This document shows, piece after piece, positions 1-64,000 of a stretch of DNA of 64,000 nucleotides; the stretch's first letter is position 1, and the number at the start of each line of letters is the position of its first letter. Below the pieces are notes generated by a model. The model did not search any database, was not told where the DNA came from, and worked only from the letters and a program-made list of their open reading frames with translations. The position numbers and the translations under genes were made by a program. The stretch lies in NCBI GenBank assembly GCA_036253495.1, contig GCA_036253495.1_4125.1; one strand, given 5' to 3'. Source of the DNA: a phage.

Positions 1-70
1 GCACTGTGAAAGATATGCGAATCCCTTATGAGTTGATGGTTTCAGTACAGAAATTTATTGAGGATTTCAG

Positions 71-538
71 ATGCGATTTGATCAAGTAGTTAATCGTGAG
101 TACTTGGGTCGTATGGTGGGTGCTGCAATTGACATGATGGTAAAAAAGATGTGCCGTTATCATCCATCACAATGGAATGCTTCATATAGCATTGAGATAT
201 ATGCATATAAACTTCATGGGGCTGCAACTTCATTTGAGAAAATTCACTCATTGAGGCTTCACATGTACAGGGGAACCGAACGTACATACACTGTAATTGT
301 GAATTCCGGTGGTGTTACATTACATTTAACACCATTTAATGCTGTTAATTTGGATTTAAGTTCAGTTATTGAGAGCACAGAAATCTGTCACATTGAAGTT
401 GGTTCTAATTATCATCCATTAACCGAAGAACAGTACTTCCAGATTCAAACACTTCATGATATCCATGACTTTACATACGAAGAAATTCGTGATTTAATAA
501 GATTAAGTGCAATGATTCCAAATAAGGGTACAGTGTGA
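71..538 (+). CDS. hypothetical protein; C-terminal L(S/T)EEQYFQ motif family
   Basis: Track ORF 155 aa; shares C-terminal motif with 1088..1552 and 21189..21767. Confidence 0.55.
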   Translation: MRFDQVVNREYLGRMVGAAIDMMVKKMCRYHPSQWNASYSIEIYAYKLHGAATSFEKIHSLRLHMYRGTERTYTVIVNSGGVTLHLTPFNAVNLDLSSVIESTEICHIEVGSNYHPLTEEQYFQIQTLHDIHDFTYEEIRDLIRLSAMIPNKGTV

Positions 539-641
539 ACAACCACATAACTGTCTGATTTAAATGGGTTGACATTTGAACAATGTAAAAGAATTGTTTC
601 TATATGTAATCGAATTACATATGAGTACACGGAGATATAAA

Positions 642-1088
642 ATGGCATTTGGTAACATTGAAGAAGTACAACTAGTATTTGAAAACTGTGAAGTTCAAAA
701 CTTCAAGTTCACTGACATTCTGTACATGTATGTTGGTGATGAATCGCAACGTGCATATCGTTATGCTAATGGTTTGTCAATTGAATCAGTACTGAAGAAG
801 TTTGCTATTGTCTTTAAGAAAGACACGGAGGCTGATTTTTACAACGGAACTTCATTGGTAGATCGCCTGTCAGAGCGTGATGTTACTCATGTTGTGTTCT
901 TCGGTGCAAATGACAAAATGGCATCATATGTCATTGACTGGGGTGAATATGATTCATGTAATATGCAGTACTCAATCAATCAGAGGTTGCAATTTACACC
1001 TGATGGACATATCATCTTCACAAGCAGTACAGAAGATATGATTAAGATTGATGCAGAAGAGATTGATTCTTTTGCGAGGTACATGTAA
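642..1088 (+). CDS. hypothetical protein
   Basis: Track ORF from 576; GGAGA RBS precedes internal ATG at 642. Confidence 0.5.
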   Translation: MAFGNIEEVQLVFENCEVQNFKFTDILYMYVGDESQRAYRYANGLSIESVLKKFAIVFKKDTEADFYNGTSLVDRLSERDVTHVVFFGANDKMASYVIDWGEYDSCNMQYSINQRLQFTPDGHIIFTSSTEDMIKIDAEEIDSFARYM

Positions 1089-1552
1089 TGCGTCCAGTAC
1101 TGAAAGATATTAAATCCAGGAAATATTTTCCTGGGTTTATGGAGTACATCATTGGGTTAGCTGAATCCAAGACTGGACAGAAAGTTGATATCCAACTCGG
1201 TGATGTACTGATTTGTGCAAGATCTTATCGTAATAATTTCATGGACATTTTTGAAAGATCCAATTCGATTCTTGCATCTCTTGATTTAGAGGGCTATTTA
1301 AATGCTAAATTCGTATTGGATATATACAGTCATGGGTTTTCAATAAGACCTTATAATTCACATTACAATGATGATCCCAAAAACTTCTTTGTGCATGTAG
1401 AAAATGTTGACCAATTCACTGACCTTAGTGATGAAAGTTACTTTCAGATGCAGGTGGCATATGACCTACAGGACTTGACACGTCAAGAAATCAATGCTAT
1501 CCTCTATGTATGTTCTAAATTGAAAGAAAATGAGGTAAGCGGTCGTGTCTAA
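1088..1552 (+). CDS. hypothetical protein; paralog of 71..538 (C-terminal motif)
   Basis: 154 aa; ATG overlaps upstream stop; C-terminal SDESYFQMQ motif. Confidence 0.55.
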   Translation: MRPVLKDIKSRKYFPGFMEYIIGLAESKTGQKVDIQLGDVLICARSYRNNFMDIFERSNSILASLDLEGYLNAKFVLDIYSHGFSIRPYNSHYNDDPKNFFVHVENVDQFTDLSDESYFQMQVAYDLQDLTRQEINAILYVCSKLKENEVSGRV

Positions 1553-1973
1553 TACAGCTAAGATTAAAGTTCATTTTCGTGACACATGGAAAGATGTAGA
1601 TACTGGTAACGTACTAAATGTAGAATACAGTACAGAAACAGTTCATGCCGATGATATGGGAACGGCTAAAGCTCAAGCACAGAAACTGAAAGAAACCGAA
1701 GGTGTTGCCATTTTTGAAGGTGTTGAGCATACTCGTGAATGTATCAATGTAGATGTGATTACTGAAAATGTCACAGTACTATCAAAGGAACAGATGTTTG
1801 ATTTCATTTTAAATCACACTGTATCTATTACACCAGACAACACACTTTGGACCAAAACTGATGGCACAAAGGTACGTAATAAGTACAAAGTTATAATTGA
1901 TGGTATTAACTATCAGGGTTATGACCTGGTAGATGCAATAAATGAACATACTAGTAAGAGTAGAGGTTATTGA
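1545..1973 (+). CDS. hypothetical protein
   Basis: 142 aa ORF, GTG start after GAGG. Confidence 0.5.
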   Translation: MSNTAKIKVHFRDTWKDVDTGNVLNVEYSTETVHADDMGTAKAQAQKLKETEGVAIFEGVEHTRECINVDVITENVTVLSKEQMFDFILNHTVSITPDNTLWTKTDGTKVRNKYKVIIDGINYQGYDLVDAINEHTSKSRGY

Positions 1974-2299
1974 AAATGTATGCTATAATTATCACTGTAA
2001 TATGTTGTGCTACTATAATCATCTGCCGTTGTATTGAAAAGAATGCACACATTCGTGGTATGGAAATTGAAAAAGAACTATATACTGAAAACATAGCAGA
2101 AAAGAAACCACAATCTCCATATAAACTTCAGAGAGATATGCATAATGAGTCAAAAACATGGGGTTATTGCATTACTCAAAATGGCAGTCGTCTAACATCA
2201 AGTTCTGGACATTATCAAATCATCCATAACATTGATGAAGCAAAAGAACTTGTTTGGGAACTAGAGGATCTTGGTGGCTATGAAAGAACGAAATTTTGA
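1970..2299 (+). CDS. hypothetical protein with N-terminal hydrophobic segment
   Basis: 109 aa ORF, start overlaps upstream stop. Confidence 0.5.
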   Translation: MKMYAIIITVICCATIIICRCIEKNAHIRGMEIEKELYTENIAEKKPQSPYKLQRDMHNESKTWGYCITQNGSRLTSSSGHYQIIHNIDEAKELVWELEDLGGYERTKF

Positions 2300-2483
2300 A
2301 ATTTACAAAACAATTCAGGAATTAAACGTAAAGCATGATATAATGCTAGATGTAGACAATAAGATTGCTTACATGAAAAAAGAAACTGTTTCAATGCTTC
2401 AGAGATTTTCACAAAAAGCATTTTTAATGAAGTTCTGTGCAGATGAGCATCTCACGGGACGAAAACTCTATAACGAGGCATAA
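2271..2483 (+). CDS. hypothetical protein
   Basis: 70 aa ORF. Confidence 0.4.
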   Translation: MVAMKERNFEIYKTIQELNVKHDIMLDVDNKIAYMKKETVSMLQRFSQKAFLMKFCADEHLTGRKLYNEA

Positions 2484-2484
2484 T

Positions 2485-2826
2485 ATGGATTTAAGCTCAA
2501 CAATTAATTTTTTGAGTGATAATTACGAAAAGGTCATATCAAGGGGTGGTATTATTATCCACCCTGTAACAAATGAAATGTTCATGGTTCGCTTTGATGC
2601 AAATTCATATGACCAAGTACTTGTAATATCACAATTTATCGATTATAATGAAGTTGTTCAATTTTGCTGTACTGAATTCGGAATCTATCTTAAAGATGCG
2701 GAAACTAATGAGATTGGTCATTACTTATATCAAACTCTGATGGTTACTCTAGATTTTGGACTTACTTTCGAAAATCTGGTACAATGTCACTATATGTTTA
2801 AAAACTTTCCCGCGTCTGGGAATTAA
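2485..2826 (+). CDS. hypothetical protein
   Basis: Internal ATG at 2485 after GAGG; track ORF from 2437. Confidence 0.5.
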   Translation: MDLSSTINFLSDNYEKVISRGGIIIHPVTNEMFMVRFDANSYDQVLVISQFIDYNEVVQFCCTEFGIYLKDAETNEIGHYLYQTLMVTLDFGLTFENLVQCHYMFKNFPASGN

Positions 2827-2836
2827 TGGAGTTCAA

Positions 2837-54085: not shown

Positions 54086-54113
54086 TTTGACAAATGTTTT
54101 TAAAAGCGTATAA
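54086..54113 (+). promoter_or_regulatory. sigma70-like promoter
   Basis: TTGACA, 16 bp spacer, TATAAT. Confidence 0.55.
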
Positions 54114-54146
54114 TACTTACATCAACTACTGAATGAGAGTTACAAA

Positions 54147-54821
54147 ATGAAAACTATCACTACTACTACTTTCGTTATGGATTTTTCTGAATTGAATGAG
54201 GGTGGCAAAGCGAAAACTATCACTACTACTACTTATGTTATGGCTTTTTCTGAATTGACCGCAGAACAACAAACGTCAGCTATCGAACTGGTTCGGGATC
54301 GTGAGCGTTCATGCGGGGATGATTTCTTTTCTGAGTCAGTGATCGAATACTATAAAGAAACATTATTGCCGGAATATGGCATTAATGACGCAGATTTACG
54401 ATTCAGTGGTTTTTGGTCGCAGGGTGACGGTGCATCAATCAGTACTGATCACGTTGACGGTGTGAAGTTTTTACGCAAGATTAAAGCATTAACTAAGTAT
54501 CGTTCTATCCGTCACCTGCTGAATGAAGATGATTTGGCAATGAGTGTAAAGCGTTCTCACTCCCACTACTCGCATGAAAACACTGTAAGCGGGTACATTG
54601 AATCGGCTTACACTGATTTAACCGCAAAACAAGAAACGTTAGTTAATGAGCTTGAGGAACTACTCACTGAAACTATTCGTGAATTATCTCGCAAGTTGTA
54701 CCGTGATTTAGAGAATGCATATGAGGATCAATTCACTACTGAGAACATTGTAGCACTGATTGAGGGTAACGAATATCAATTCAATGTTATTGATGGCGTA
54801 GTAGAATCAATCGAATATTAA
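54147..54821 (+). CDS. hypothetical protein with N-terminal internal duplication
   Basis: 224 aa; KTITTTTFVMDFSEL repeated as KTITTTTYVMAFSEL. Confidence 0.6.
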   Translation: MKTITTTTFVMDFSELNEGGKAKTITTTTYVMAFSELTAEQQTSAIELVRDRERSCGDDFFSESVIEYYKETLLPEYGINDADLRFSGFWSQGDGASISTDHVDGVKFLRKIKALTKYRSIRHLLNEDDLAMSVKRSHSHYSHENTVSGYIESAYTDLTAKQETLVNELEELLTETIRELSRKLYRDLENAYEDQFTTENIVALIEGNEYQFNVIDGVVESIEY

Positions 54822-54838
54822 TTCAGTACTGAATCAAT

Positions 54839-54857
54839 GGCGGGAGTGGTTCCCGCC
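54839..54857 (+). promoter_or_regulatory. 5' palindromic hairpin (no obvious own promoter)
   Basis: GGCGGGAGTGGTTCCCGCC just upstream of the RBS of 54878. Confidence 0.5.
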
Positions 54858-54877
54858 TATAACCAGGAGTAAGCATC

Positions 54878-55111
54878 ATGATCGAACAAATTCAAACGAC
54901 TACTAGCCGGAGCGGAACGAAAGTACATTCCATCGCTGATACTGATAAAGGTGTACCCTATTGTGCTGTACACGTAAACACTGACGGTGACTATTGGTTA
55001 ACTGTATACGGGCGTTACTCGTTTGCTTTTAGTGCACATAGTAAGATCCTGGAAGTAGTGAAGCCAACGGGTAAAAATATTACCGCTGAAATGTTTTATA
55101 AAAAGCACTAA
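54878..55111 (+). CDS. hypothetical small protein; paralog of 56247..56483
   Basis: Shared GVPYCAVHVNTDG.YW.TVYG ... PTGKNITAEMFYKK. Confidence 0.65.
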   Translation: MIEQIQTTTSRSGTKVHSIADTDKGVPYCAVHVNTDGDYWLTVYGRYSFAFSAHSKILEVVKPTGKNITAEMFYKKH

Positions 55112-55114
55112 AAA

Positions 55115-55176
55115 GTACTTGCAAAGTAATTAGATTAACGTATAATACTTTATATCGAGAGCGGGAATAGTTCCCG
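55115..55176 (+). promoter_or_regulatory. promoter with 5' palindromic hairpin
   Basis: AGTACTTGCAA, TATAAT, GCGGGAATAGTTCCCGC. Confidence 0.65.
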
Positions 55177-55196
55177 CCTATACTGAGGATTATCTA

Positions 55197-55478
55197 ATGA
55201 GCAAAGTAATTAACTATACAGTACTAAGCAAGTCATTGTCTATCAGTGAGTGCACCGATGGTTATTGGCTTTATGATGAAACGCGTGGCATGAATTTAGC
55301 TATGCAGGAGAAAACTACTGATGCGGCATATCTTAAAGCACTGGAATACTACCAGAAGCGTTTAAAGGAAGTAGAAAACGATTATAATAACCTGAAAGCG
55401 AAAGTAGATAATTTCGTTGGTCAATTCGTTGACGATGACGAGGGGCACTACTGCGACCGTTGCGGATCTTACAGTTAA
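55197..55478 (+). CDS. hypothetical small protein
   Basis: 93 aa; C-terminal CDRCGSYS. Confidence 0.6.
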   Translation: MSKVINYTVLSKSLSISECTDGYWLYDETRGMNLAMQEKTTDAAYLKALEYYQKRLKEVENDYNNLKAKVDNFVGQFVDDDEGHYCDRCGSYS

Positions 55479-55495
55479 GTACTAAGGATTATATA

Positions 55496-55699
55496 ATGAG
55501 TGATTTAATTGAACGTATCAAAGAGCTTGAAGAAAAAGAATTGCAGCTAATCGGCTTACAGAATAAAATCTATCATGATTTGGGGAGTTTTATCAATGCC
55601 TGGGATAGTGGCGATCCTGATGCGTTACCTGCTAACCGCCAGGCGATGATCAATGATGTGCGTCGTGTCTTTGAGTATGTTTTTAAGCAATTAAATTAA
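55496..55699 (+). CDS. hypothetical small protein
   Basis: ATG 55496 after TAAGGA; track ORF from 55460. Confidence 0.55.
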   Translation: MSDLIERIKELEEKELQLIGLQNKIYHDLGSFINAWDSGDPDALPANRQAMINDVRRVFEYVFKQLN

Positions 55700-55702
55700 A
55701 AA

Positions 55703-55765
55703 GTACTTGCAATTAGTTTTCAGTACTGTATAATAGTTTACATCAAGGGGAGAAATGGTTCTCCC
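55703..55765 (+). promoter_or_regulatory. promoter with 5' palindromic hairpin
   Basis: AGTACTTGCAA, CAGTACTGTATAAT, GGGGAGAAATGGTTCTCCC. Confidence 0.65.
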
Positions 55766-55784
55766 TGGTAATGAGGAAAATACA

Positions 55785-56006
55785 ATGGCTAACATTACTA
55801 CCCTTTCCCAACTTGAAGCACTGGTTAAATCTATGCGGGAACATGCCGACAATATCGGCGTAAAAGATCCAGCCGTTTGCTTCTGCGACGATGTAAATGA
55901 TGATACACTGGTAATAGCAGAAGTCCAGGACGTTTCTAACTATTCATCGCGTTACACTGGCGGTGTAGCAAATAAAGGTGACTTCTGTTTATACCTTACT
56001 AAGTAA
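55785..56006 (+). CDS. hypothetical small protein
   Basis: ATG 55785 after GAGGAA; track ORF from 55755. Confidence 0.55.
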   Translation: MANITTLSQLEALVKSMREHADNIGVKDPAVCFCDDVNDDTLVIAEVQDVSNYSSRYTGGVANKGDFCLYLTK

Positions 56007-56066
56007 TACAGAGGGGATCGATTGATCCCCTTTATTTTGCAGTACTGAATCATTTAATAGACGGAT

Positions 56067-56127
56067 CTATGCACCCGGTGGGTTAGAGACTGTATCGTCT
56101 TGATGTAGTAATTATGCCAGTACTGGA
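56067..56127 (+). repeat. conserved noncoding element family A, copy 4
   Basis: CTATGCACCCGGTGGGTTAGAG..TCTTGATGTAGTAATTATGCCAGTACTGG. Confidence 0.6.
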
Positions 56128-56169
56128 TGCAGTTGTCAAGAACTATTTTTCAAATACTTTTTATTAAAA

Positions 56170-56225
56170 TACTTGCTAATAGTTTTTAAACGCGTATAAT
56201 GTTTTGCATAGGGGAGCGGTTCCCC
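56170..56225 (+). promoter_or_regulatory. promoter with 5' palindromic hairpin
   Basis: TACTTGCTA, TATAAT, GGGGAGCGGTTCCCC. Confidence 0.6.
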
Positions 56226-56246
56226 TGGTAACTAAGGAATAAGAAA

Positions 56247-56483
56247 ATGCTTGAACAAATCAAAACAACGTCTGCGAATGTAACGGGAACGGTATCACAC
56301 TTTATTGGTGATGAATCGCGGGGCGTACCCTATTGTGCTGTACATGTAAACACTGATGGCAACTACTGGTTTACGGTTTACGGATCTTATTCATTTGGTC
56401 GACCTGGACATCAAAAAATCCTGGATAAAGTACAGCCAACGGGTAAAAATATCACTGCTGAAATGTTTTATAAAAAATCATAA
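56247..56483 (+). CDS. hypothetical small protein; paralog of 54878..55111
   Basis: 78 aa; same conserved core. Confidence 0.65.
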   Translation: MLEQIKTTSANVTGTVSHFIGDESRGVPYCAVHVNTDGNYWFTVYGSYSFGRPGHQKILDKVQPTGKNITAEMFYKKS

Positions 56484-56484
56484 A

Positions 56485-56546
56485 GTACTTGCAATTAGTT
56501 TTTAGTACTGTATAATATTTTACATAGCAAGGGGGAACGGTTCCCC
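56485..56546 (+). promoter_or_regulatory. promoter with 5' palindromic hairpin
   Basis: AGTACTTGCAA, TAGTACTGTATAAT, GGGGGAACGGTTCCCC. Confidence 0.65.
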
Positions 56547-56566
56547 TGGTAACTAAGGATAATCAA

Positions 56567-56866
56567 ATGAAAATTGCAATCATCGCCCTGGCTTTATCTG
56601 TTTCCTCTTTCGCTGTTAATGCGTCATTAGATGTACCTGGTGATAAATTCATTCAGTGCACAGTAGCAATGACAGATGAAAGTACTGGCGAGATTGTTTT
56701 AAAGGATCTGGAATTACAGCCAGAAGCATTTAAAAACGGGCCGTTCCATGAAGAAGACGAAAAAGGTAGCACAACAATTTATTATGATGCAATGAAAAAA
56801 CGTGGTTCTGTCACTGTTATGGATACTGAGAAAGTAACGCATACAGGCGTTATTAACTGCCTATAA
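56567..56866 (+). CDS. putative secreted small protein
   Basis: Signal peptide MKIAIIALALSVSSFAVNAS. Confidence 0.6.
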   Translation: MKIAIIALALSVSSFAVNASLDVPGDKFIQCTVAMTDESTGEIVLKDLELQPEAFKNGPFHEEDEKGSTTIYYDAMKKRGSVTVMDTEKVTHTGVINCL

Positions 56867-56886
56867 TACATCAGTACTGAATCACT

Positions 56887-56913
56887 AGCCCACTATAAGC
56901 AGTGGGCTTTTTT
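56887..56913 (+). terminator. Rho-independent terminator
   Basis: AGCCCACTATAAGCAGTGGGCT + T-run. Confidence 0.75.
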
Positions 56914-56961
56914 GTAGTATCGTAGTACTGGAATACTTTGAAAATAGTTTTAAAAAAGTAG

Positions 56962-57050
56962 TTGACATTACCGCAAAAAGGCGTAGAATGTATTACATCA
57001 AGACGGGGAACACTAAGTAGACCGCCAGTAAGTCGAACGAAAAACTGGAC
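56962..57050 (+). promoter_or_regulatory. promoter plus conserved long leader element
   Basis: TTGACA, TAGAAT; leader ACGGGGAAC..AAGTAG..AGTAAG..CGAAAAACT resembles 54010-54075; about 110 nt 5' UTR. Confidence 0.5.
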
Positions 57051-57112
57051 ACGTCGAGAAAACTTTGATACACTAACTAACGTAAACTAAACTTTAATTG
57101 AGGAATTACATA

Positions 57113-57595
57113 ATGGCTAACGTAAAATCATTCATCAAAGCACTGGTAGCAAATGAAACTAACGTAGCGGCAGAAATCCTGGCCGAACTGGATAGCGATA
57201 CCATGAAAGCAGTACGCAACAATTTTAACATTGCGTACAGCGAAGCGAAAGAACTGCAAGCTAATAAAGCGGCAGCACTTGAAGCTGAGAAGGCAGCACG
57301 CGAAGCTGAATTGCAGAAAACGATTGAAGATATTAACGCCGCCGTCGCTGGGCTTGATCTGGAAGTAGTTACCGAAATGGCACGTAAAGCCCTGGCAGCG
57401 AAATACGGGGAAGACAAGCCAGAAGTAAAAGCTAAAAAATGGATTCAAGAACGTGTGACGGTTGTACTGGATAATGGCGAGGAATACACTGTACCAGTAC
57501 GCGGTAACTGCATTGCGGTAGTACTGGATGCTATCAAAGAAAGCGGATTGACTCGCGAGGAATGGATCGAATCTCATCGCAAAGTTGAAGCATAA
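57113..57595 (+). CDS. hypothetical A/E/K-rich protein
   Basis: ATG 57113 after GAGGAA; track ORF begins at a TTG at 57098. Confidence 0.6.
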   Translation: MANVKSFIKALVANETNVAAEILAELDSDTMKAVRNNFNIAYSEAKELQANKAAALEAEKAAREAELQKTIEDINAAVAGLDLEVVTEMARKALAAKYGEDKPEVKAKKWIQERVTVVLDNGEEYTVPVRGNCIAVVLDAIKESGLTREEWIESHRKVEA

Positions 57596-57616
57596 CAATT
57601 AAAGTACTGAATCACT

Positions 57617-57644
57617 AGCCCACCTTAAACAGTGGGCTTTTTTT
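57617..57644 (+). terminator. Rho-independent terminator
   Basis: AGCCCACCTTAAACAGTGGGCT + T-run. Confidence 0.75.
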
Positions 57645-57660
57645 GTGTCTATAGTATCCC

Positions 57661-57770
57661 AGTCCACCAGCACCGCCTAGAATCGATTCTAACGCATTAA
57701 ACTGATTATCTGATGCATCGCCCTAGCTGGTGGCGTTAAGGTCGTTAGAATGCGATTGAGAGCGTTTAAA
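57661..57770. repeat. long imperfect inverted repeat containing the CGTTAGAATGCG element
   Basis: CCACCAGCACCGCCTAGAATCGATTCTAACGC ... GCCCTAGCTGGTGGCGTTAAGGTCGTTAGAATGCGATTGAGAGCGTTTAAA. Confidence 0.5.
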
Positions 57771-57794
57771 GTATTTTGCAAAAAGTAATAAAAA

Positions 57795-57826
57795 GTACTT
57801 GCACGATAAAGAGATTAGCGTATAAT
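57795..57826 (+). promoter_or_regulatory. sigma70-like promoter
   Basis: AGTACTTGCAC, TATAAT. Confidence 0.55.
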
Positions 57827-57871
57827 TAATTACATCAAGGCGAGACACCTTAACTAACTGAGGATATAAAG

Positions 57872-58024
57872 ATGAATACTTATGAACTGGATTGTTTCAC
57901 TTTACAAGTAATGTCAGTATGCAGTAAAAAAGATTGGTCATCAAAGGAATTTAAAGCAGTTATCGCGTGTGCAAAACACGGCAAGACTATCAATGAAACG
58001 GCATCAATCATTGATAAACTTTAA
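57872..58024 (+). CDS. hypothetical small protein
   Basis: 50 aa hand-translated; GAGGAT RBS. Confidence 0.4.
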   Translation: MNTYELDCFTLQVMSVCSKKDWSSKEFKAVIACAKHGKTINETASIIDKL

Positions 58025-58032
58025 AAAATAGT

Positions 58033-58061
58033 TTGACAATAGTTTTAAGTACTGCGATAAT
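58033..58061 (+). promoter_or_regulatory. sigma70-like promoter
   Basis: TTGACA, 17 bp spacer, GATAAT. Confidence 0.5.
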
Positions 58062-58094
58062 ACATACATCAACTACTGAATAGGAATCAAAACA

Positions 58095-58322
58095 ATGGCT
58101 ATCGTAATCACTCGCGTAACTGGTACTACTGGCAATTCTTCTACTGTTGCTGTAATTACTAATAAGAAAGGTGCGGAATTGCATTTTGCAATGGATACCT
58201 GGGCAGTGAATGAGTTCGGTCAGTGGGCTAGTGTAGAATACATTGAATCCTATCAAGTGCCATCGATTAGCTTAACTGATTTAGGTGTAGAACGTATCCT
58301 TTGCCTGGATGAATTAAATTAA
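58095..58322 (+). CDS. hypothetical small protein
   Basis: 75 aa ORF. Confidence 0.55.
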   Translation: MAIVITRVTGTTGNSSTVAVITNKKGAELHFAMDTWAVNEFGQWASVEYIESYQVPSISLTDLGVERILCLDELN

Positions 58323-58326
58323 AAAA

Positions 58327-58390
58327 GTACTTGCAAAGTAAATCAAATAAAGTATAATACATTACATCAAGGGGAGAAATGGTTCTCCCC
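58327..58390 (+). promoter_or_regulatory. promoter with 5' palindromic hairpin
   Basis: AGTACTTGCAA, TATAAT, GGGGAGAAATGGTTCTCCCC. Confidence 0.65.
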
Positions 58391-58408
58391 ACTAAGAGGA
58401 AACGAAAA

Positions 58409-58552
58409 ATGAAAACTTGTCAATGTGGTAAAAAATCTATTACTGGTTTAAAGCGGGGCGTTGCTCTTTGTCAGTATCACTATAATGCTCAAGTATGGGG
58501 TAAAGAGTGGGCCGACCGGGTTGAAGCATCAAAGAAAGCAAAAAGTAAGTAA
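58409..58552 (+). CDS. small cysteine-containing protein (possible zinc ribbon)
   Basis: 47 aa hand-translated; CQCG ... LCQYH. Confidence 0.45.
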   Translation: MKTCQCGKKSITGLKRGVALCQYHYNAQVWGKEWADRVEASKKAKSK

Positions 58553-58571
58553 AAATATTATCACAGTACTA

Positions 58572-58600
58572 TTGACATAGATTGATAGTACTGGCATAAT
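58572..58600 (+). promoter_or_regulatory. sigma70-like promoter within a ~95-bp duplicated intergenic block
   Basis: TTGACA, 17 bp spacer, CATAAT; block recurs at 58860-58950 and 62740-62830. Confidence 0.6.
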
Positions 58601-58643
58601 AGATTTTATCAAGACAACACATATTAATTTAAGGAATACTAAA

Positions 58644-58856
58644 ATGGCTATCATTATTAAAAACAAAGTTAACAAGACTATCGTTAAACTGGCAGAAGTG
58701 AAAGAAGGTTATAAAGTATCTTGGGAGGGTTTTTATAGGATGTTCACAGATATAGACGATGCAATCAAGTACTACACTGATACGGTTGCTGACTTTGTTC
58801 GTTCTGATGTAGTAATGGCAGTTGCACAACATAAAGCATCGAAAGAAAGTAAGTAA
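58644..58856 (+). CDS. hypothetical small protein
   Basis: 70 aa; MAII start shared with 62828 gene. Confidence 0.55.
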   Translation: MAIIIKNKVNKTIVKLAEVKEGYKVSWEGFYRMFTDIDDAIKYYTDTVADFVRSDVVMAVAQHKASKESK

Positions 58857-58875
58857 AATTATTATCACAGTACTA

Positions 58876-58904
58876 TTGACATAGTTTGATAGTACTGGCA
58901 TAAT
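58876..58904 (+). promoter_or_regulatory. sigma70-like promoter (duplicated block copy 2)
   Basis: TTGACA, CATAAT; leader identical to copy 1. Confidence 0.6.
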
Positions 58905-58947
58905 AGATTTTATCAAGACAACACATATTAATTTAAGGAATACTAAA

Positions 58948-59271
58948 ATGGCTAAAACTATCATTAACACCGTATCCCTGGCTGCAATCCGTGCAATCAA
59001 TGTTGACGGTAAACGTTGGACTGATTCATATGGCAATACTTATCATTCTTGTCATGTAAGCGTTGAACTGGATAACGGTGTGAATGATCTGGCGGTTGAA
59101 TCATTTACTTATGGCTATGAAGATGCATATCAACAAACGGCGTTATCTCTCTTAAAGGAATCAGTAGATGGGCTTGATACTGTTGAAACCTCCCTTAATC
59201 GTTTGTGCAATGATTTGTCTATCCCGTTGCATTGTACTGTACAGAATGTTAAACGCAAAAAAGATCTTTAA
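58948..59271 (+). CDS. hypothetical protein
   Basis: 107 aa ORF. Confidence 0.55.
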   Translation: MAKTIINTVSLAAIRAINVDGKRWTDSYGNTYHSCHVSVELDNGVNDLAVESFTYGYEDAYQQTALSLLKESVDGLDTVETSLNRLCNDLSIPLHCTVQNVKRKKDL

Positions 59272-59351
59272 TTAGCTTTACTTTATGCAGATACTTTGAT
59301 ATAGTGTCTGCATAGGGGAAAGAAATTAAATTAACTTAAGAGGATAGTATA

Positions 59352-59621
59352 ATGAAAAATATCAGTACTTTAATCGATGCAGGTACGCATGTTCGTCGGT
59401 CTATGGTTGCAACCAGTACTACAAAACAAGTAGCGAGCGGTTATCTTGTATTTGTGCACGATGGTAAACTCCTGGAACGTTCAATCAATTTTGATGTTAA
59501 AAACAATTGCCGTTTTATTATCTTTAAGCGTGAACAATATAAAATTGATTTACCAGCGAAGCCCATAAGCGGGGCGTACAACGTGCAATCATTGTTTGAG
59601 CGTCAACCATACACCTATTAA
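59352..59621 (+). CDS. hypothetical small protein
   Basis: 89 aa, AGAGGA RBS. Confidence 0.55.
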   Translation: MKNISTLIDAGTHVRRSMVATSTTKQVASGYLVFVHDGKLLERSINFDVKNNCRFIIFKREQYKIDLPAKPISGAYNVQSLFERQPYTY

Positions 59622-59672
59622 TCAAAACATCGTTAGCGGTTGATTTAGGCCGCTTATATTGAGGATTATACC

Positions 59673-59942
59673 ATGAACGTTAATCAAGTACTGAATGAAG
59701 TTGAAAGCATCATTAAACCAATGAAACGAATTGATGCAATTCCTACACCGGAAGAATGCCGCCTTTATGAGCGTTACAGTGTAGAACAAGCCCAGGCGAT
59801 GGCCCGTATCCGTCCGGTTGCTAGTACTGAGAACGCGGATCAGGACGTTACAGGGGATTATATCATTAATCCAGTACTAGGGAAGATGCCGCCAATCACC
59901 GAAGAACAAAAAGACTATTTGAGCCAGTACTTAAAAGGTTAA
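59673..59942 (+). CDS. hypothetical small protein
   Basis: 89 aa, GAGGAT RBS. Confidence 0.55.
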   Translation: MNVNQVLNEVESIIKPMKRIDAIPTPEECRLYERYSVEQAQAMARIRPVASTENADQDVTGDYIINPVLGKMPPITEEQKDYLSQYLKG

Positions 59943-59947
59943 TTAAT

Positions 59948-60157
59948 ATGCTTACTGTACAGGATAAGATCGACATCTTAAAGGTTAATATGTATGTGAT
60001 TGATGCAGATCCTGAAAAAGTATTTGCATACGATGATTCTAATCGTAGTCCTTTCTATTGTAGTCATGTAGTTGGATACGTGCCGTTGGCGTATGTTATC
60101 GAAAGAGTGGTTGATGCAGCATACAATCATTTTTTAGAAAATAATACTTGCAATTAG
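59948..60157 (+). CDS. hypothetical small protein
   Basis: 69 aa ORF. Confidence 0.45.
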   Translation: MLTVQDKIDILKVNMYVIDADPEKVFAYDDSNRSPFYCSHVVGYVPLAYVIERVVDAAYNHFLENNTCN

Positions 60158-60206
60158 TTTTCAGTACTGTATAATGATTTGCATCGAGAGCGGGAATGGT
60201 TCCCGC
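60144..60206 (+). promoter_or_regulatory. promoter with 5' palindromic hairpin
   Basis: TACTTGCAA, CAGTACTGTATAAT, GCGGGAATGGTTCCCGC. Confidence 0.65.
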
Positions 60207-60229
60207 CTAACTCAAAGAGAGAAAATATA

Positions 60230-60472
60230 ATGGAAACTATTTTAATCAAAGACACTGCAACTACTGTTACTTATGATAATGATTGTATTATCCCTGGCAC
60301 TGATTACGGTGAACGTGTACCCGTTCAAGTCGAGATTGATACTACATACATTGACCAGGCTGAAAAGTGTATCACTATTGTTATTGGTGAATATCGTTTT
60401 CTACCAGAAGAGATCCAAAAATGGCAGTATATGATTGACCGTGCGAAATTAGTCGCACAAAGTTTAAAATAA
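60230..60472 (+). CDS. hypothetical small protein
   Basis: ATG 60230; track ORF from 60179. Confidence 0.55.
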   Translation: METILIKDTATTVTYDNDCIIPGTDYGERVPVQVEIDTTYIDQAEKCITIVIGEYRFLPEEIQKWQYMIDRAKLVAQSLK

Positions 60473-60535
60473 TACTTGCAATTAGTTTTCAGTACTGTAT
60501 AATGTTTTACATGAAGGGGAGAAATAGTACTCCCC
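60472..60535 (+). promoter_or_regulatory. promoter with 5' palindromic hairpin
   Basis: TACTTGCAA, CAGTACTGTATAAT, GGGGAGAAATAGTACTCCCC. Confidence 0.65.
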
Positions 60536-60554
60536 ACTAATTAAGGAATATGAA

Positions 60555-60701
60555 ATGAAAGCATCAAAAAAGAGTAATACTAAGAAAGCATGTTCACCTT
60601 TCGCTGGGGTATTCCCTTTACGTTTCGTTGATGAAGTGGTTTCCTACCCGCCGGGCCTTACTCCTGAGATGGTAGAAAGTTTGCGTAAATCTAAAAAATA
60701 G
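60555..60701 (+). CDS. hypothetical small basic protein
   Basis: 48 aa hand-translated; AAGGAA RBS. Confidence 0.45.
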   Translation: MKASKKSNTKKACSPFAGVFPLRFVDEVVSYPPGLTPEMVESLRKSKK

Positions 60702-60764
60702 TACTTGCAATTAGTTTTCAGTACTGTATAATGTTTTACATAGAGGGGGGAAATGGTTCTCCCC
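60701..60764 (+). promoter_or_regulatory. promoter with 5' palindromic hairpin
   Basis: AGTACTTGCAA, CAGTACTGTATAAT, GGGGGGAAATGGTTCTCCCC. Confidence 0.65.
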
Positions 60765-60782
60765 GATACTAGGAGAATCAAA

Positions 60783-60935
60783 ATGAAACAATATAATGCT
60801 CGGTTTGATGTTACTATCGGCAACGGCAAAGGTCAATTTTCTTTCAGTACTCGTCGCAGTTATACAGAAAACTTCCTGCGTAATTGTGCATTGACCGCCG
60901 CACAAATTAAACATTACTTCCAGGCTAAAAAATGA
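60783..60935 (+). CDS. hypothetical small protein
   Basis: ATG 60783 after AGGAGA; track ORF from 60753. Confidence 0.5.
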   Translation: MKQYNARFDVTIGNGKGQFSFSTRRSYTENFLRNCALTAAQIKHYFQAKK

Positions 60936-61021
60936 AATCATTGGCTTATTACAGTTCGGCGGTGATCGGTGCATTGATCGCGGCATTGTTAGTAACCTAT
61001 CTATTCTTTGTGGTGATTTAA
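60932..61021 (+). CDS. small hydrophobic peptide
   Basis: 29 aa hand-translated, single TM-like segment, ATGA overlap. Confidence 0.3.
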   Translation: MKSLAYYSSAVIGALIAALLVTYLFFVVI

Positions 61022-61159
61022 ATGAATCCTAACGGTTTAATTTATAGTACTCCTAAAACGAAAGCAGATAAAGCGAAAGCACGTAAAGCGAAAGTAAAGG
61101 AGTACATCAAGCAAGGCATGACGCGAAAAGCAGCAGTACTAAAAGCTAAAAATAAATGA
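61022..61159 (+). CDS. small K/A-rich basic peptide
   Basis: 45 aa hand-translated, TAAATG coupling. Confidence 0.4.
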   Translation: MNPNGLIYSTPKTKADKAKARKAKVKEYIKQGMTRKAAVLKAKNK

Positions 61160-61166
61160 AAAAAGT

Positions 61167-61198
61167 GGTTGACTTCGGTCAGCCATTTTGCTATTATA
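61167..61198 (+). terminator. terminator hairpin overlapping promoter -35
   Basis: GGTTGAC-TTCG-GTCAGCC, short T-run, TATTAT. Confidence 0.6.
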
Positions 61199-61221
61199 TA
61201 TTCATTGAGAGATAGCTCACT

Positions 61222-61246
61222 AGCCCACCGGGTGCGGAAGTGTAAA
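61222..61246 (+). repeat. conserved noncoding element family B, copy 3
   Basis: AGCCCACCGGGTGCGGAAGTGTAAA. Confidence 0.45.
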
Positions 61247-61278
61247 TAAAATATATCAATCTAATAAGGAGTACTACA

Positions 61279-61461
61279 ATGTTTAAACCAATCGAACTAG
61301 CGGCATCACATATCATCGGTAAACCTGCCGTTATCATACGCCAGGAAGACGTAAACCTATGGATCATCTATGTAGACATGAAAGAGATTGAGCGTCACGA
61401 TGATTTCAAATCAGCGTCAATTGCGTATGATATGGCGTTATGTGAGTATCAAAGAGATTAA
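61279..61461 (+). CDS. hypothetical small protein
   Basis: 60 aa, AAGGAG RBS. Confidence 0.55.
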   Translation: MFKPIELAASHIIGKPAVIIRQEDVNLWIIYVDMKEIERHDDFKSASIAYDMALCEYQRD

Positions 61462-61477
61462 AAGTATTTTGCAAAAA

Positions 61478-61540
61478 GTACTTGCATTGTACTTAGAATC
61501 AAGTATAATGTTTTACATAGCAAGGGGAAACGGTTTCCCC
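61478..61540 (+). promoter_or_regulatory. promoter with 5' palindromic hairpin
   Basis: AGTACTTGCAT, TATAAT, GGGGAAACGGTTTCCCC. Confidence 0.65.
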
Positions 61541-61561
61541 TGGTAACTAAGGAAATGAATT

Positions 61562-62029
61562 ATGAATAGCATCGAATTCGTCGCAGCAGTACAAGAAAAC
61601 TTCCTGAAAGTATTCCCTAACGGTTTCTTTATCGCCCGACCTTTACCGCTGGGTGGCGACGTGGGGATCACTATGTCACTGACTCGCGAGCTTGCCGACT
61701 GCCCCCACAATATCCGCGATAACGACCGCATGATGATGACCTTTGCGATCCACGGTATGAAGTTCGGGGATAGCGACGAATACACAGACAAGCTGATCAT
61801 GGAACCGTACCGCAGCGTTATCAGTACTATTCCACGTAAACAGTACTACGCGATGGGACATGACAAAATCCCTACCCGTAAGACTACAAACACGCCTGAG
61901 AAGCTGTTAGCGACTCTTAACAAGTATATTCGGGCCGCAGGTAAACAGGTGTTAGATCTTAAAGCATTAAACGAGATTTACCAACAGGAAAACATCAAAG
62001 AGCAGTACTTAGAAATTAACGTAAAATAG
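61562..62029 (+). CDS. hypothetical protein
   Basis: 155 aa ORF. Confidence 0.6.
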   Translation: MNSIEFVAAVQENFLKVFPNGFFIARPLPLGGDVGITMSLTRELADCPHNIRDNDRMMMTFAIHGMKFGDSDEYTDKLIMEPYRSVISTIPRKQYYAMGHDKIPTRKTTNTPEKLLATLNKYIRAAGKQVLDLKALNEIYQQENIKEQYLEINVK

Positions 62030-62093
62030 TACTAGACAACACAACGGGGCTATTATATAATAGTCCCATCTTAAGCAAACAAGGAACTACAAA

Positions 62094-62432
62094 ATGATCT
62101 CAATCGCTCAATCTAACTTTGAAAACGAAATCATCGCCCAGGCACTGCGTTTAAATGATGGTCGGGCCGAAATTAATTACGGTTTCAATTCAGGCGGTTG
62201 TGAAAACTATCAGTACTTTGTAACGGCTGATGGCGGTGTCCTGGGAATCAATACAGTTATTGTAAACATTCAGAAAATTAATTTCAATGATCCAGAAGAT
62301 AGCCAGTTTTACATCACGGGCGTAGACGTGAACTATGAGGATGACTCACTAACTGATGATTGCACTGGTGAGAAGTTAGAAAGTGCATACGGTGAAGATG
62401 ATTATCAGTCCGGTCCAGAAGATTTCGAATAA
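62094..62432 (+). CDS. hypothetical acidic protein
   Basis: 112 aa ORF. Confidence 0.6.
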   Translation: MISIAQSNFENEIIAQALRLNDGRAEINYGFNSGGCENYQYFVTADGGVLGINTVIVNIQKINFNDPEDSQFYITGVDVNYEDDSLTDDCTGEKLESAYGEDDYQSGPEDFE

Positions 62433-62448
62433 TATAAAAAATAGTTTG

Positions 62449-62511
62449 ACAATAGATTATAGTACTGTATAATAAGTTACATCAAGGGGAGAATAGTTCT
62501 CCCCACAAACA
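62449..62511 (+). promoter_or_regulatory. promoter with 5' palindromic hairpin
   Basis: TTGACA, TAGTACTGTATAAT, GGGGAGAATAGTTCTCCCC. Confidence 0.65.
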
Positions 62512-62524
62512 GAGAGAAAACAAA

Positions 62525-62737
62525 ATGGCTAATATCCGCACTGTACTGAAAAATGCAAAACAAGTTTTATTTTCTGATCATGAAAATTTCAACAAGGATA
62601 TCACAGGCGTTCGGAATATCAAAGATGTAAAAAATGTTATGGGTATCTATTGCAATATGAAACGTGTTGGCACGTTCGGCGATAAAGTACTATACCAGGC
62701 AGGGGATTACAATTTTACACTGACTATCATTAACTAA
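62525..62737 (+). CDS. hypothetical small protein
   Basis: 70 aa ORF. Confidence 0.55.
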   Translation: MANIRTVLKNAKQVLFSDHENFNKDITGVRNIKDVKNVMGIYCNMKRVGTFGDKVLYQAGDYNFTLTIIN

Positions 62738-62756
62738 AAATATTATCACAGTACTA

Positions 62757-62785
62757 TTGACAACGTTTGATAGTACTGACATAAT
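62757..62785 (+). promoter_or_regulatory. sigma70-like promoter (duplicated block copy 3)
   Basis: TTGACA, 17 bp spacer, CATAAT. Confidence 0.6.
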
Positions 62786-62827
62786 AACTTTTATCAAGAC
62801 AACGCATATTAACTTAAGGAATTAAAA

Positions 62828-63007
62828 ATGGCTATTATCGCAAAAACTGAAATCGTTGGTCTGGATTCTATCATCATGACGTTTGAAGATCAAAAAGGGA
62901 TGTATGTAGTTTCCTATGGTGATTATGTTCGGGAGTATGAAACGGTAGACGAAGCCTTTGAAAGTTACATTCGCCAGGTGAATAAAGCATACGACGACTA
63001 CCGCTAA
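62828..63007 (+). CDS. hypothetical small protein
   Basis: 59 aa hand-translated; MAIIAKTEIV. Confidence 0.5.
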   Translation: MAIIAKTEIVGLDSIIMTFEDQKGMYVVSYGDYVREYETVDEAFESYIRQVNKAYDDYR

Positions 63008-63034
63008 AATATATTACCAGTACTATTAAAGATA

Positions 63035-63062
63035 TTGACATAGTTTGATAGTACTGTATAAT
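63035..63062 (+). promoter_or_regulatory. sigma70-like promoter
   Basis: TTGACA, 16 bp spacer, extended -10 TGTATAAT. Confidence 0.6.
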
Positions 63063-63106
63063 AAGTTTTATCAACAGTAGTTAACTTAACCTAAGAGAGA
63101 AAGAAA

Positions 63107-63250
63107 ATGATCGCACTGGATTCATTCATCGAAGCAGTACTGGCAAAAACTGGCGAAGATCTGACCGCAGAACAATACGCAATGATCGAACAATGCCAGC
63201 AAGACGGTAAATCGGTGAAAGATACTGTTAAGATTATCCGCAAGATGTAA
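63107..63250 (+). CDS. hypothetical small protein
   Basis: 47 aa hand-translated; AGAGAGAAAG RBS. Confidence 0.5.
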   Translation: MIALDSFIEAVLAKTGEDLTAEQYAMIEQCQQDGKSVKDTVKIIRKM

Positions 63251-63256
63251 GATTAT

Positions 63257-63287
63257 AGCCCACTGGTTAACGCTGGTGGGCTTTTTA
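63257..63287 (+). terminator. Rho-independent terminator
   Basis: AGCCCACTGGTTAACGCTGGTGGGCT + T-run. Confidence 0.7.
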
Positions 63288-63369
63288 GTATATACCTATC
63301 CGATAGTACTACAAAATAGATTAGCTCGTTAGAATGCGTTTGAGAGCGTTTAAATAAGTACTAAAAAGT

Positions 63370-63427
63370 ATTGACAGTACTGATAGATAGTGTATAATGT
63401 TTTACATGAAGGGGAAACATCTTCCCC
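63370..63427 (+). promoter_or_regulatory. promoter with 5' palindromic hairpin
   Basis: TTGACA, TATAAT, GGGGAAACATCTTCCCC; preceded by a CGTTAGAATGCG element. Confidence 0.65.
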
Positions 63428-63445
63428 TACTAAGAGGAAAACAAA

Positions 63446-63634
63446 ATGGAACAATTATCAAGTATTTTAGTACAAGATGAATACGGCAATCCAGGAAGTG
63501 CTATCATTGTTCGGGGTAATAAGGCAACGTTTGTTATTGCTGGTGGACCTGTACAGCGTAGCATTAAAAACAATGCCGTTACTATTAATAATGTACGCTA
63601 TCGTTTAGATAAAGAATTAATTCATAAACTTTAA
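63446..63634 (+). CDS. hypothetical small protein
   Basis: 62 aa ORF. Confidence 0.55.
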   Translation: MEQLSSILVQDEYGNPGSAIIVRGNKATFVIAGGPVQRSIKNNAVTINNVRYRLDKELIHKL

Positions 63635-63638
63635 AAAA

Positions 63639-63702
63639 GTACTGGACAATAGATTATAGTACTGTATAATAAGTTACATGAAGGGGAGAAATGATTCTCC
63701 CC
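63639..63702 (+). promoter_or_regulatory. promoter with 5' palindromic hairpin
   Basis: TGGACA, TAGTACTGTATAAT, GGGGAGAAATGATTCTCCCC. Confidence 0.65.
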
Positions 63703-63720
63703 AGTACTGAGGAAAGAAAA

Positions 63721-63933
63721 ATGCAAGGTCAACTAATCGTTCGTAAATGGTCTGATACTAACGCTAAACCGTGGGATGTACAATACATCGCCCCCAATGG
63801 TGAATCCAGATATCAACCAGGTGTAACGCATAGTACTGAGCAATATGCCGCCGCACACCGTGAACGCCTGTTACAATCCATGCAGCAAGGCTTCGGTGAA
63901 AAATTCATCCAAGATCATTGGCTGAAAGATTAA
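63721..63933 (+). CDS. hypothetical small protein
   Basis: ATG 63721 after GAGGAAAG; track ORF from 63691. Confidence 0.55.
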   Translation: MQGQLIVRKWSDTNAKPWDVQYIAPNGESRYQPGVTHSTEQYAAAHRERLLQSMQQGFGEKFIQDHWLKD

Positions 63934-63937
63934 AAAA

Positions 63938-64000
63938 GTATTTGACAAAGTATCACAGTACTGTATAATTAATTACATCAAGGGGAGAAGTTTTCTCCCC
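63938..64000 (+). promoter_or_regulatory. promoter with 5' palindromic hairpin (window edge)
   Basis: TTGACA, CAGTACTGTATAAT, GGGGAGAAGTTTTCTCCCC. Confidence 0.6.

Follow-up and report, generated by a model that had tools for sequence, protein, structure and literature searches.

A Clade-Wide Excess of the Palindrome AGTACT in RaK2-Like Jumbo Phages: Candidate Sites for a Putative DNA Reader

Introduction

Why would a phage genome that has undergone a near-total purge of other palindromes keep one of them at several copies per kilobase? The question is raised by the hexamer AGTACT in the phage contig GCA_036253495.1_4125.1 (NCBI GenBank assembly GCA_036253495.1), a stretch of 64,000 nucleotides analysed as a whole and referred to here as the window. 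Phage genomes are the textbook example of palindrome avoidance, and the clade to which the window belongs is extreme in this respect, yet it maintains a single palindrome at some 900 copies across genera and hosts, which argues for a strong, phage-intrinsic force acting at the DNA level. No description of such an excess was found in the literature on AGTACT or CAGTACTG in a phage context; as far as that literature goes, it is undescribed for these phages. We suggest classing it with the highly iterated palindromes, as a variant from an AT-rich viral genome, and we weigh what may sustain it.

Extent and Distribution of the Excess

The window derives from a jumbo coliphage of RaK2/121Q type, genus Asteriusvirus, close to Escherichia phage A4 (ON286972.1, 355,528 bp). 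Positions 1-46,400 correspond to A4 309,912-355,528 (98-99.5% identity) and positions 46,400-64,000 to A4 3-17,395 (93-99% identity). AGTACT occurs 250 times, against 21.7 expected from base composition; in 100 dinucleotide-preserving shuffles the count was 21.0 ± 5.4 and rose to 33 at most, never to 250. Among all 4,096 hexamers it ranks first under Markov orders 0-3 (expectations of 20.6, 46.8, and 99.9 for orders 1, 2, and 3); the maximal-order expectation (204.5) approaches the observed count because the same motif inflates the pentamers of which the hexamer consists. The excess extends outward to the octamer CAGTACTG (58 copies vs. 0.68 expected) and inward to GTAC (582 vs. 209). The complete A4 genome, where AGTACT is again the top hexamer, contains 922 copies (120 expected), together with 224 of CAGTACTG (3.7 expected) and 2,551 of GTAC (1,147 expected). 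Fold enrichment is thus 11.5 in the window and 7.7 in A4 for the hexamer, and 85 and 60, respectively, for the octamer; with these values the genome-wide excess of at least 10-fold that characterizes a HIP-type (highly iterated) palindrome is attained. An earlier note, made from the letters of the window alone, had judged AGTACT to occur several times per kilobase against one per 3 kb expected. Its estimate was accurate (250 vs. ~21; 2.65-6.9/kb), and the Markov statistics by which it proposed to challenge the excess leave it standing at orders 0-3. It also rightly called the enrichment anomalous for a phage, this being a genome with no GCGC and with 22-25 six-base palindromes missing.

The background is indeed one of extreme palindrome avoidance, seen in the whole window, in A4, and in all clade loci. 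GCGC is absent from the window (63 expected) and from A4 (338 expected), although the CpG methylase of the phage should modify it. Twenty-five six-base palindromes are lacking in the window and 22 in the 355-kb A4 genome, with several more nearly absent, and nearly all palindromes with four to six G/C bases have been purged, TCGCGA, ACGCGT, CACGTG, and GTGCAC excepted. The AGTACT excess is no by-product of this purge: CGTACG and GGTACC together represent ~70 expected sites vs. an excess of ~800.

Density is uneven along the window: 2.65/kb at 1-32,800, 3.0/kb at 32,801-46,399, where genes lie on the minus strand, and 6.9/kb at 46,400-64,000. In A4, the first 25 kb hold 28-42 copies per 5 kb and the remainder 4-22, against 1.7 expected. 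That first segment, rich in small early genes, probably overlaps the long terminal repeat that has been described for relatives, and the early region of the window (A4 3-17,395) probably lies in or next to it. Gaps between sites are near-exponential (coefficient of variation 1.16) and the histogram of pair distances has no peaks; the periodicity that the note had thought worth a check is absent.

Phylogenetic Range and the Host Contrast

With polB as anchor, loci of 17-43 kb were compared across relatives; a polB scan of viral contigs yielded two loci only. AGTACT is enriched 6.6-fold in the same region of A4, 5.1-fold in 121Q, 6.6-fold in RaK2, 6.0-fold in a second Klebsiella phage, 6.3-fold in Cronobacter GAP32, 5.8-fold in Serratia BF, and 8.9-fold in Xanthomonas XaC1, whose polB is 62% identical. 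In the nearest outgroups, Agrobacterium Atu_ph07 and Pseudomonas PA5oct, the values are 0.1 and 0.3. Every branch of the clade tested (seven members, with Escherichia, Klebsiella, Cronobacter, Serratia, and Xanthomonas hosts) therefore carries a 5-9-fold excess that the outgroups lack, so that the trait is one of the clade, old, and independent of host genus.

Host DNA is very different. A 50-kb sample of Escherichia coli K-12 contains three AGTACT, no CAGTACTG, and 373 GCGC; by this single sample AGTACT is ~40 times rarer in the host than in the phage. Given the counts in A4 and in K-12, phage and host DNA are almost perfectly distinguishable by two words, AGTACT and GCGC.

Site Profile, Coding Pressure, and Turnover

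The sites show the profile expected of recognition. Enrichment in A4 is graded, from 60-fold for CAGTACTG to 9-15-fold when positions 1/8 are substituted, 2-8-fold for positions 2/7, and ~1-4-fold within the GTAC core. In folded A4 half-sites, the base at -1 is C in 48% of cases (17.6% in the background) and G in 8% (18% in the background), positions -2 to -4 being mildly T-rich. The -1 preference drifts by lineage, with C in A4, 121Q, and RaK2 and A in XaC1 and BF. The two flanks are independent (C...G at 224 A4 sites vs. 209 expected), and the palindrome extends only 0-1 bp past the hexamer at 821 of the 922. This speaks against hairpins, and two independent half-site contacts on duplex DNA fit. 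A role as intrinsic terminator or hairpin element was rejected on the same grounds, the more so as GCCAGTACTGGC, the terminator hairpin in which the note had placed AGTACT, has no copy in the window. The terminator-like hairpins at 46.4-64 kb are mostly of the AGCCCAC...GTGGGCT type followed by a T-run. Of the 13 terminator-like hairpins, 11 lack AGTACT; the two that have it are weak candidates that overlap each other on the minus strand, at 63,695-63,718.

The pressure for AGTACT acts on DNA, not on codons. With coding counts taken from crude calls of open reading frames (ORFs) in the window, 174 copies lie in coding sequence, against 39.7 ± 6.1 after synonymous-codon shuffling (a 4.4-fold excess) and 24.5 ± 4.7 after shuffling of codon order. 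As the note had said, the motif runs through ORFs and noncoding sequence alike. It is found in all three frames and in the genes of both strands. All frames are enriched, 3.6-6-fold over the synonymous shuffle (78 as AGT-ACT, 40 as xAG-TAC-Txx, 56 as xxA-GTA-CTx), and minus-strand genes have an equal density. At least one AGTACT lies in each ORF of more than 1.2 kb, late structural genes also hold ~2.2/kb, and outside the early region coding and noncoding densities are about equal (2.23 and 2.69/kb). Presence in all frames and in noncoding DNA, beyond what codon usage yields, led us to reject a codon or translation effect. The protein sequence itself is bent toward the motif, since Ser-Thr and Val-Leu dipeptides are 1.65-fold over-represented. 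AGT is the commonest Ser codon (31%) and ACT the commonest Thr codon (44%) of window ORFs; just upstream of the window, at A4 304,019-307,088, lies a tRNA cluster that includes Thr(UGU), Ser(UGA), and the AGY-reading Ser(GCU). The tRNA set and the AGTACT pressure may have co-adapted.

Individual sites turn over while density is kept. In a polB codon alignment of seven phages, each has 6-8 AGTACT (~1 expected), and a single position is common to all; many gains altered amino acids, such as Ala-Ala to Ser-Thr. In a 43-kb alignment of four genomes AGTACT is conserved 1.5-2 times above all hexamers and above those of the same composition, with 55-70% of sites private to a lineage: the motif is maintained across relatives and conserved above a neutral baseline. 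The window and A4 have 218 sites in common and 23 that are private, most of the latter differing by one base; 23 positions changed where local identity predicted 40 (controls, 730 vs. 909). No patch-like multibase conversion was seen between the two, their differences being mostly ordinary single-base changes. Over its 1,038 bp, the intein in the A4 C5-methylase gene has no AGTACT and a single GTAC (for the latter, Poisson P = 0.005), and it is found in only five genomes. Turnover at constant density, together with an acquired intein devoid of the motif, indicates that sites are created continuously in resident DNA and retained weakly to moderately. At A4 25,000-39,000 there is also an AGTACT-poor island (1.1/kb, with gaps of 7.3 and 4.5 kb) between regions at 3.6-6.9/kb, which may be more recently acquired DNA.

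AGTACT in Early Promoters

Between 46.4 and 64 kb we found 31 strong plus-strand matches to sigma70-type promoters, several of them perfect (TTGACA-16-TATAAT). Two positions are fixed: 21 of the 31 (68%) have AGTACT at one of them or at both, as do 13 of the 241 promoter-like matches in the rest of A4. In 16 early promoters AGTACT starts 7-8 bases before the -10 hexamer, in 12 it abuts or overlaps the -35 element (start at -27 to -30 from the -10 hexamer), and seven have both, with centers ~20 bp apart (table 1). Several distinct promoter subtypes share this arrangement, and the promoter strings cited in the note, AAAAGTACTTGCAA and CAGTACTGTATAAT, recur five and seven times in the window. Early noncoding DNA accordingly stands out, with 12.5 AGTACT/kb vs. 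2.7/kb in other noncoding DNA. A fixed position relative to sigma70 elements is not, however, what most occurrences show: ~28 of the 250 window sites are promoter-positioned, and ~90% of all sites lie within genes, with no relation to promoter-like matches. Still, the fixed positions are the best hint that something binds AGTACT and acts on transcription.

About 15 early promoters (window 52,770-63,700) are also followed, 8-13 nt after the -10 element, by a conserved G-rich hairpin, GGGGAGAA-(3-4 nt)-TTCTCCCC, which would set a stable stem-loop at the 5' end of early transcripts; Rfam matched nothing in the window, this hairpin included.

Table 1. Positions in the window of the AGTACT array, of promoters carrying the motif, and of associated features
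Feature	Position	Strand	Description
Dispersed AGTACT array	1..64000		250 AGTACT (58 as CAGTACTG) in genes of both strands, all three frames, and noncoding DNA
Phage sigma70-family factor	10025..10987	+	Regions 2, 3, and 4; context gene
Promoter beyond the early block	13434..13461	+	ACTTGACAGAAGATATCAGTACTGTATAAT; AGTACT (13449-13454) abuts -10
Promoter similar to 13434..13461	25038-25050		
Early-gene region	46400..64000	+	Numerous small ORFs under individual strong sigma70-type promoters; 122 AGTACT, 6.9/kb
Dual-site promoter	55699..55734	+	AGTACT 55702-55707 overlaps first T of -35 TTGCAA (55707-55712); second AGTACT 55722-55727, one base before -10 TATAAT (55729-55734); centers 20 bp apart
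Dual-site promoter	56484-56516		Layout as at 60700..60732
Dual-site promoter	60700..60732	+	AGTACT at 60700 and 60720; -35 TTGCAA at 60705; -10 ends at 60732
G-rich hairpin (examples)	55,747-55,766; 58,370-58,391; 62,485-62,505		

Other Features of the Locus

The minus strand of window 32,800-46,400 holds a tandem family of paralogues named 'putative DNA condensation protein' or 'kelch-like' in A4. Two neighboring ORFs, without a name in A4, have RCC1-like beta-propeller domains, and one family member that was scanned had no Pfam match; in view of the domains in the adjoining ORFs, the name 'DNA condensation' looks misleading. Junctions between these genes contain repeated segments of ~100 bp that are 87-95% identical. 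Among the early/middle genes, near the sigma70-family gene, window ~17,075-17,335 (A4_200) encodes a DksA/TraR-type C4 zinc-finger protein, probably a regulator that binds the secondary channel of RNA polymerase.

A separate signal is the E. coli Chi sequence, GCTGGTGG, over-represented ~16-fold and strongly strand-biased (six plus and one minus in the window; 21 plus and two minus in A4, where 1.3 are expected on each). In every clade locus with an enterobacterial host, CTGGTG belongs to the six hexamers in greatest excess, though it ranks first only in Serratia BF; in XaC1 it is outside the top six. This suggests a host-specific use against RecBCD.

A Putative Reader and Its Rivals

We tentatively favor, at a little less than even confidence, the view that AGTACT forms a selected, clade-specific array of sites for a putative symmetric reader of duplex DNA encoded by the phage. 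This view starts from what is observed: an enrichment that is symmetric and graded, the phylogenetic range over which it occurs, sites that turn over while density stays constant, and their fixed positions in promoters. That a reader protein exists, that the phage encodes it, and what it does, we infer. AGTACT, with CAGTACTG as optimum and GTAC as strict core, would be held at ~2-3/kb clade-wide by selection on DNA, and a two-fold-symmetric, dimeric phage protein would recognize it in the duplex. At early promoters, two sites ~20 bp apart would bracket the -35 element and abut the -10, so that a reader bound there would block RNA polymerase, and early transcription would probably be shut off as a result. 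Elsewhere, the dense scatter of sites would make phage DNA a far better substrate for the reader than host DNA. The outcome would be a marking, coating, or organization of unmodified phage DNA based on sequence. Of the three origins that the note had offered, that of a binding site gains most from our results, namely graded two-fold symmetry, independent flanks, clade-wide and host-independent occurrence, and fixed promoter positions; that of a modification site loses ground, the detectable methylases looking GATC- and CpG-specific.

Several observations weigh against a reader. No reader gene was found, the proteins scanned in the window being without a DNA-binding domain, and the helix-turn-helix (HTH_19) regulator that adjoins the sigma gene in GAP32, a further candidate, was rejected for want of a homologue in A4 or the window. 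Spacing of the sites is random, with no sign of an architectural lattice. Between close relatives, AGTACT changes are only ~30% rarer than those of control hexamers, a modest constraint per site. The dual promoter sites could come in part from duplication of promoter cassettes, the contrast with the host is drawn from one sample, and a biased-conversion process would yield an identical pattern. Also rejected were the 'DNA condensation proteins' as nucleoid-like readers (they are RCC1-like beta-propeller paralogues), a small 'sigma-70 family' ORF at 13492-13785 (very acidic and unlikely to bind DNA), the C5-methylase as reader (DNMT3-like and CpG-specific), and the 'restriction enzyme' of the phage CRJP21 annotation, which neither A4 nor the window has.

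The conversion process just mentioned is the function-free alternative, improbable in our estimation though credible: context-dependent mismatch or short-patch repair, or biased gene conversion, would turn near-sites into AGTACT, the excess being merely the equilibrium of this molecular drive. A mechanism of this kind was proposed by Elhai for the cyanobacterial HIP1 (PMC4390886). Drive sits well with the Poisson scatter of sites without periodicity, with their occurrence in every frame at a cost in amino acids, with the absence of the motif from recently acquired DNA, and with the modest per-site conservation between close relatives. The motif is also densest in the early region, which probably overlaps the terminal repeat and may recombine most often, and the phage, T4-like and highly recombinogenic, encodes UvsX, UvsY, gp46/47, and endonuclease VII. 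Yet one-mismatch neighbors are not depleted (transition neighbors stand at 1.2-1.3-fold in the window and 1.5-1.6-fold in A4), the opposite of the Vsr/CCWGG signature. Neither is a methylase matched to the motif evident, and differences between the window and A4 are mostly single bases, not patches. Drive also leaves unexplained the fixed positions in early promoters and the 12.5 vs. 2.7 sites/kb in noncoding DNA.

A second rival, likewise doubtful but deserving weight, makes AGTACT the substrate of a sequence-specific phage enzyme: a methylase or other modification enzyme that also protects against ScaI/RsaI-type restriction, a T5-like nickase, or a topoisomerase II, for which a cut at A^GTAC_T would give a symmetric four-base stagger. 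A genome that avoids restriction sites nonetheless tolerates 922 ScaI-type and 2,551 GTAC sites, which would be easier if these were protected, and the phage encodes topoisomerase II subunits in a genome with T5-like long terminal repeats. The search for methyltransferase genes that the note had recommended did turn up two detectable DNA methylases in A4, neither of which looks AGTACT-specific. One, the PF05869 Dam-family enzyme, is the only A4 ORF to combine an amino-methylase motif with a methylase family match, no other A4 ORF doing so. All branches of the clade have kept this N6-adenine methylase, XaC1, BF, and the Yersinia and Erwinia members among them; however, its characterized relatives are GATC-specific. 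M.Phi93DAM, with NPPY as its only motif, was found to make G6mATC by single-molecule real-time (SMRT) sequencing and DpnI/DpnII digestion. In most annotated clade records from Escherichia, Klebsiella, and Salmonella, the Dam-family gene (A4 66,965-68,022 and syntenic loci) has a cytidylyltransferase/nucleotidyltransferase gene as neighbor; in those of XaC1, Serratia BF, Yersinia, and Eneladusvirus, the methylase is listed without it.

The other methylase, a C5 enzyme that is also conserved in the clade, lies outside the window (A4 292,647-294,545). In five phages it is interrupted, exactly at the catalytic GFP|CQ motif, by an intein (residues 78-423, Hint and LAGLIDADG); once spliced, the 286-residue enzyme matches the catalytic domains of DNMT3A/B over their full length (E = 2e-22). 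The RaK2 paper describes CpG methylation by bisulfite sequencing, and AGTACT has no CpG. RaK2 DNA has been reported to resist many enzymes, a point in favor of modification, whereas the DNA of a close relative, fEgEco12, was cut as predicted by ten enzymes, which argues against global hypermodification. The neighbors in which T replaces C are not drained either, AGTATT standing at 1.31-fold and AATACT at 1.17-fold in the window, and CAGTATTG and CAATACTG at 1.6- and 1.5-fold in A4. With methylases apparently of GATC and CpG type and undepleted neighbors, a model of methylase plus biased repair is unsupported, and Vsr-type repair was rejected because deamination neighbors are not depleted. Protection, in any case, would account for tolerance of the sites and not for an 8-60-fold excess.

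Very unlikely, in our view, is that AGTACT is only a transcription signal (a promoter class, a pause, or a processing element) whose genome-wide excess is spill-over or an RNA signal. Its appeal lies in the 68% of strong early promoters with AGTACT at fixed positions, in AAAAAGTAC upstream of -35, which we take to resemble a proximal UP-element subsite, and in a clade-specific sigma70-family factor (table 1) that co-occurs with the trait, its range of 72 phage records matching the clade with the excess. Only ~28 of 250 window sites, however, are in promoter positions, the rest lying in ORFs in all frames; a palindrome is not required of an RNA signal, and gene orientation has no bearing on density. 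Furthermore, the published promoter classes of the clade are not AGTACT-based: they are RpoD-like, TGAAACG-type, and ATAAATA, and none contains the hexamer. The second of these, with its TGAAACG-type -35, was placed upstream of DNA-synthesis genes in the CBB paper and was not assigned to the sigma70-family factor.

Barely tenable is a hijacking of the host nucleoid-occlusion factor SlmA, by which the phage genome would activate the protein and block cell division. Most hosts of the clade are enterobacteria with SlmA. AGTACT is indeed the center of the SlmA site GTGAGTACTCAC, but SlmA needs G1, T2, A4, G5, and a purine at position 3 (PMC3020112), whereas A4 has no match to GTRAGYRCTYAC in 355 kb and the position-3 equivalent prefers C (48%), with G depleted (8% vs. 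18%). The excess is also strongest in a Xanthomonas phage. These flank statistics essentially refute an SlmA site.

Returning to the putative reader, we consider a broader version of it, which we hold to be quite unlikely: in RaK2-like jumbo phages, sequence composition rather than base modification would serve as a two-part code for self and non-self, made of an AGTACT reader and a GCGC-free genome. The reader would protect, organize, or help internalize phage DNA and shut off early promoters, and total absence of GCGC would let a phage nuclease destroy host DNA and spare the phage. It draws on contrasts with the host sample, in which AGTACT is ~40-fold less dense and GCGC stands at ~7.5/kb against none in the phage. 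The AGTACT-densest early region, likely overlapping the terminal repeat, may be the part that enters the cell first.

Phages of this clade are being characterized and proposed for therapy, and if a protein reads AGTACT it would offer a handle on how an unmodified 350-kb genome is recognized, regulated, or protected in the cell. Should conversion drive prove true instead, this would be among the clearest cases of sequence-specific drive reshaping protein-coding sequence.

Comparison with Known Systems

The closest parallel is HIP1 (GCGATCGC) of cyanobacteria. Like AGTACT, HIP1 (Elhai 2015, PMC4390886; Xu et al. 2018, PMC5861425) is widely iterated: both are short palindromes enriched at least 10-fold genome-wide in coding and noncoding DNA, conserved above neutral, and with an enrichment that falls first at the outer positions. 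HIP1 is reported to have quasi-periodic spacing, which AGTACT does not show (coefficient of variation 1.16), and HIP1 and its alternates go with a cognate orphan methylase, a link made by Elhai, whereas the two methylases here look GATC- and CpG-specific. The sequences differ, and the carrier of AGTACT is an AT-rich virus genome rather than a cell. Unlike HIP1, moreover, AGTACT coexists with a near-total purge of other palindromes. If a protein reads AGTACT, the puzzle of HIP1, now 30 years old, would also gain a viral model that is tractable.

Other systems share single features. Chi, the DNA uptake sequences (DUS) and uptake signal sequences (USS), and the FtsK-orienting polar sequences (KOPS) are short, dense words kept by selection for a protein machine, as proposed for AGTACT, but they are asymmetric and usually orientation-biased where AGTACT is palindromic. 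The SlmA-binding sequence GTGAGTACTCAC (PMC3020112) is palindromic, has an identical central hexamer, and is read by a dimeric helix-turn-helix protein, yet its required outer positions are absent or disfavored in the phage. In terms of restriction-site avoidance, AGTACT (ScaI-type) and GTAC (RsaI-type) are classical type II sites, yet the sign is opposite, AGTACT being amplified while others are purged. Very-short-patch repair by Dcm/Vsr raises CCWGG, a methylated palindrome, in E. coli; the effect is small and T-containing neighbors are depleted, in contrast to the 8-60-fold excess and undepleted neighbors of AGTACT.

For the mechanism proposed here, the model is TF1 of phage SPO1, an abundant phage DNA-binding protein that prefers the phage's own hydroxymethyluracil (hmU) DNA and binds sites in early promoters. 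No TF1/HU homologue was identified in the window. TF1 tells the DNA of phage and host apart and is active at early promoters, as an AGTACT reader would be; yet TF1 discriminates by a modified base, and the reader would need an iterated sequence motif. If the two-part self/non-self code were true, it would be the sequence-encoded counterpart of the discrimination that T4 achieves with hydroxymethylcytosine (hmC) and SPO1 with hmU and TF1.

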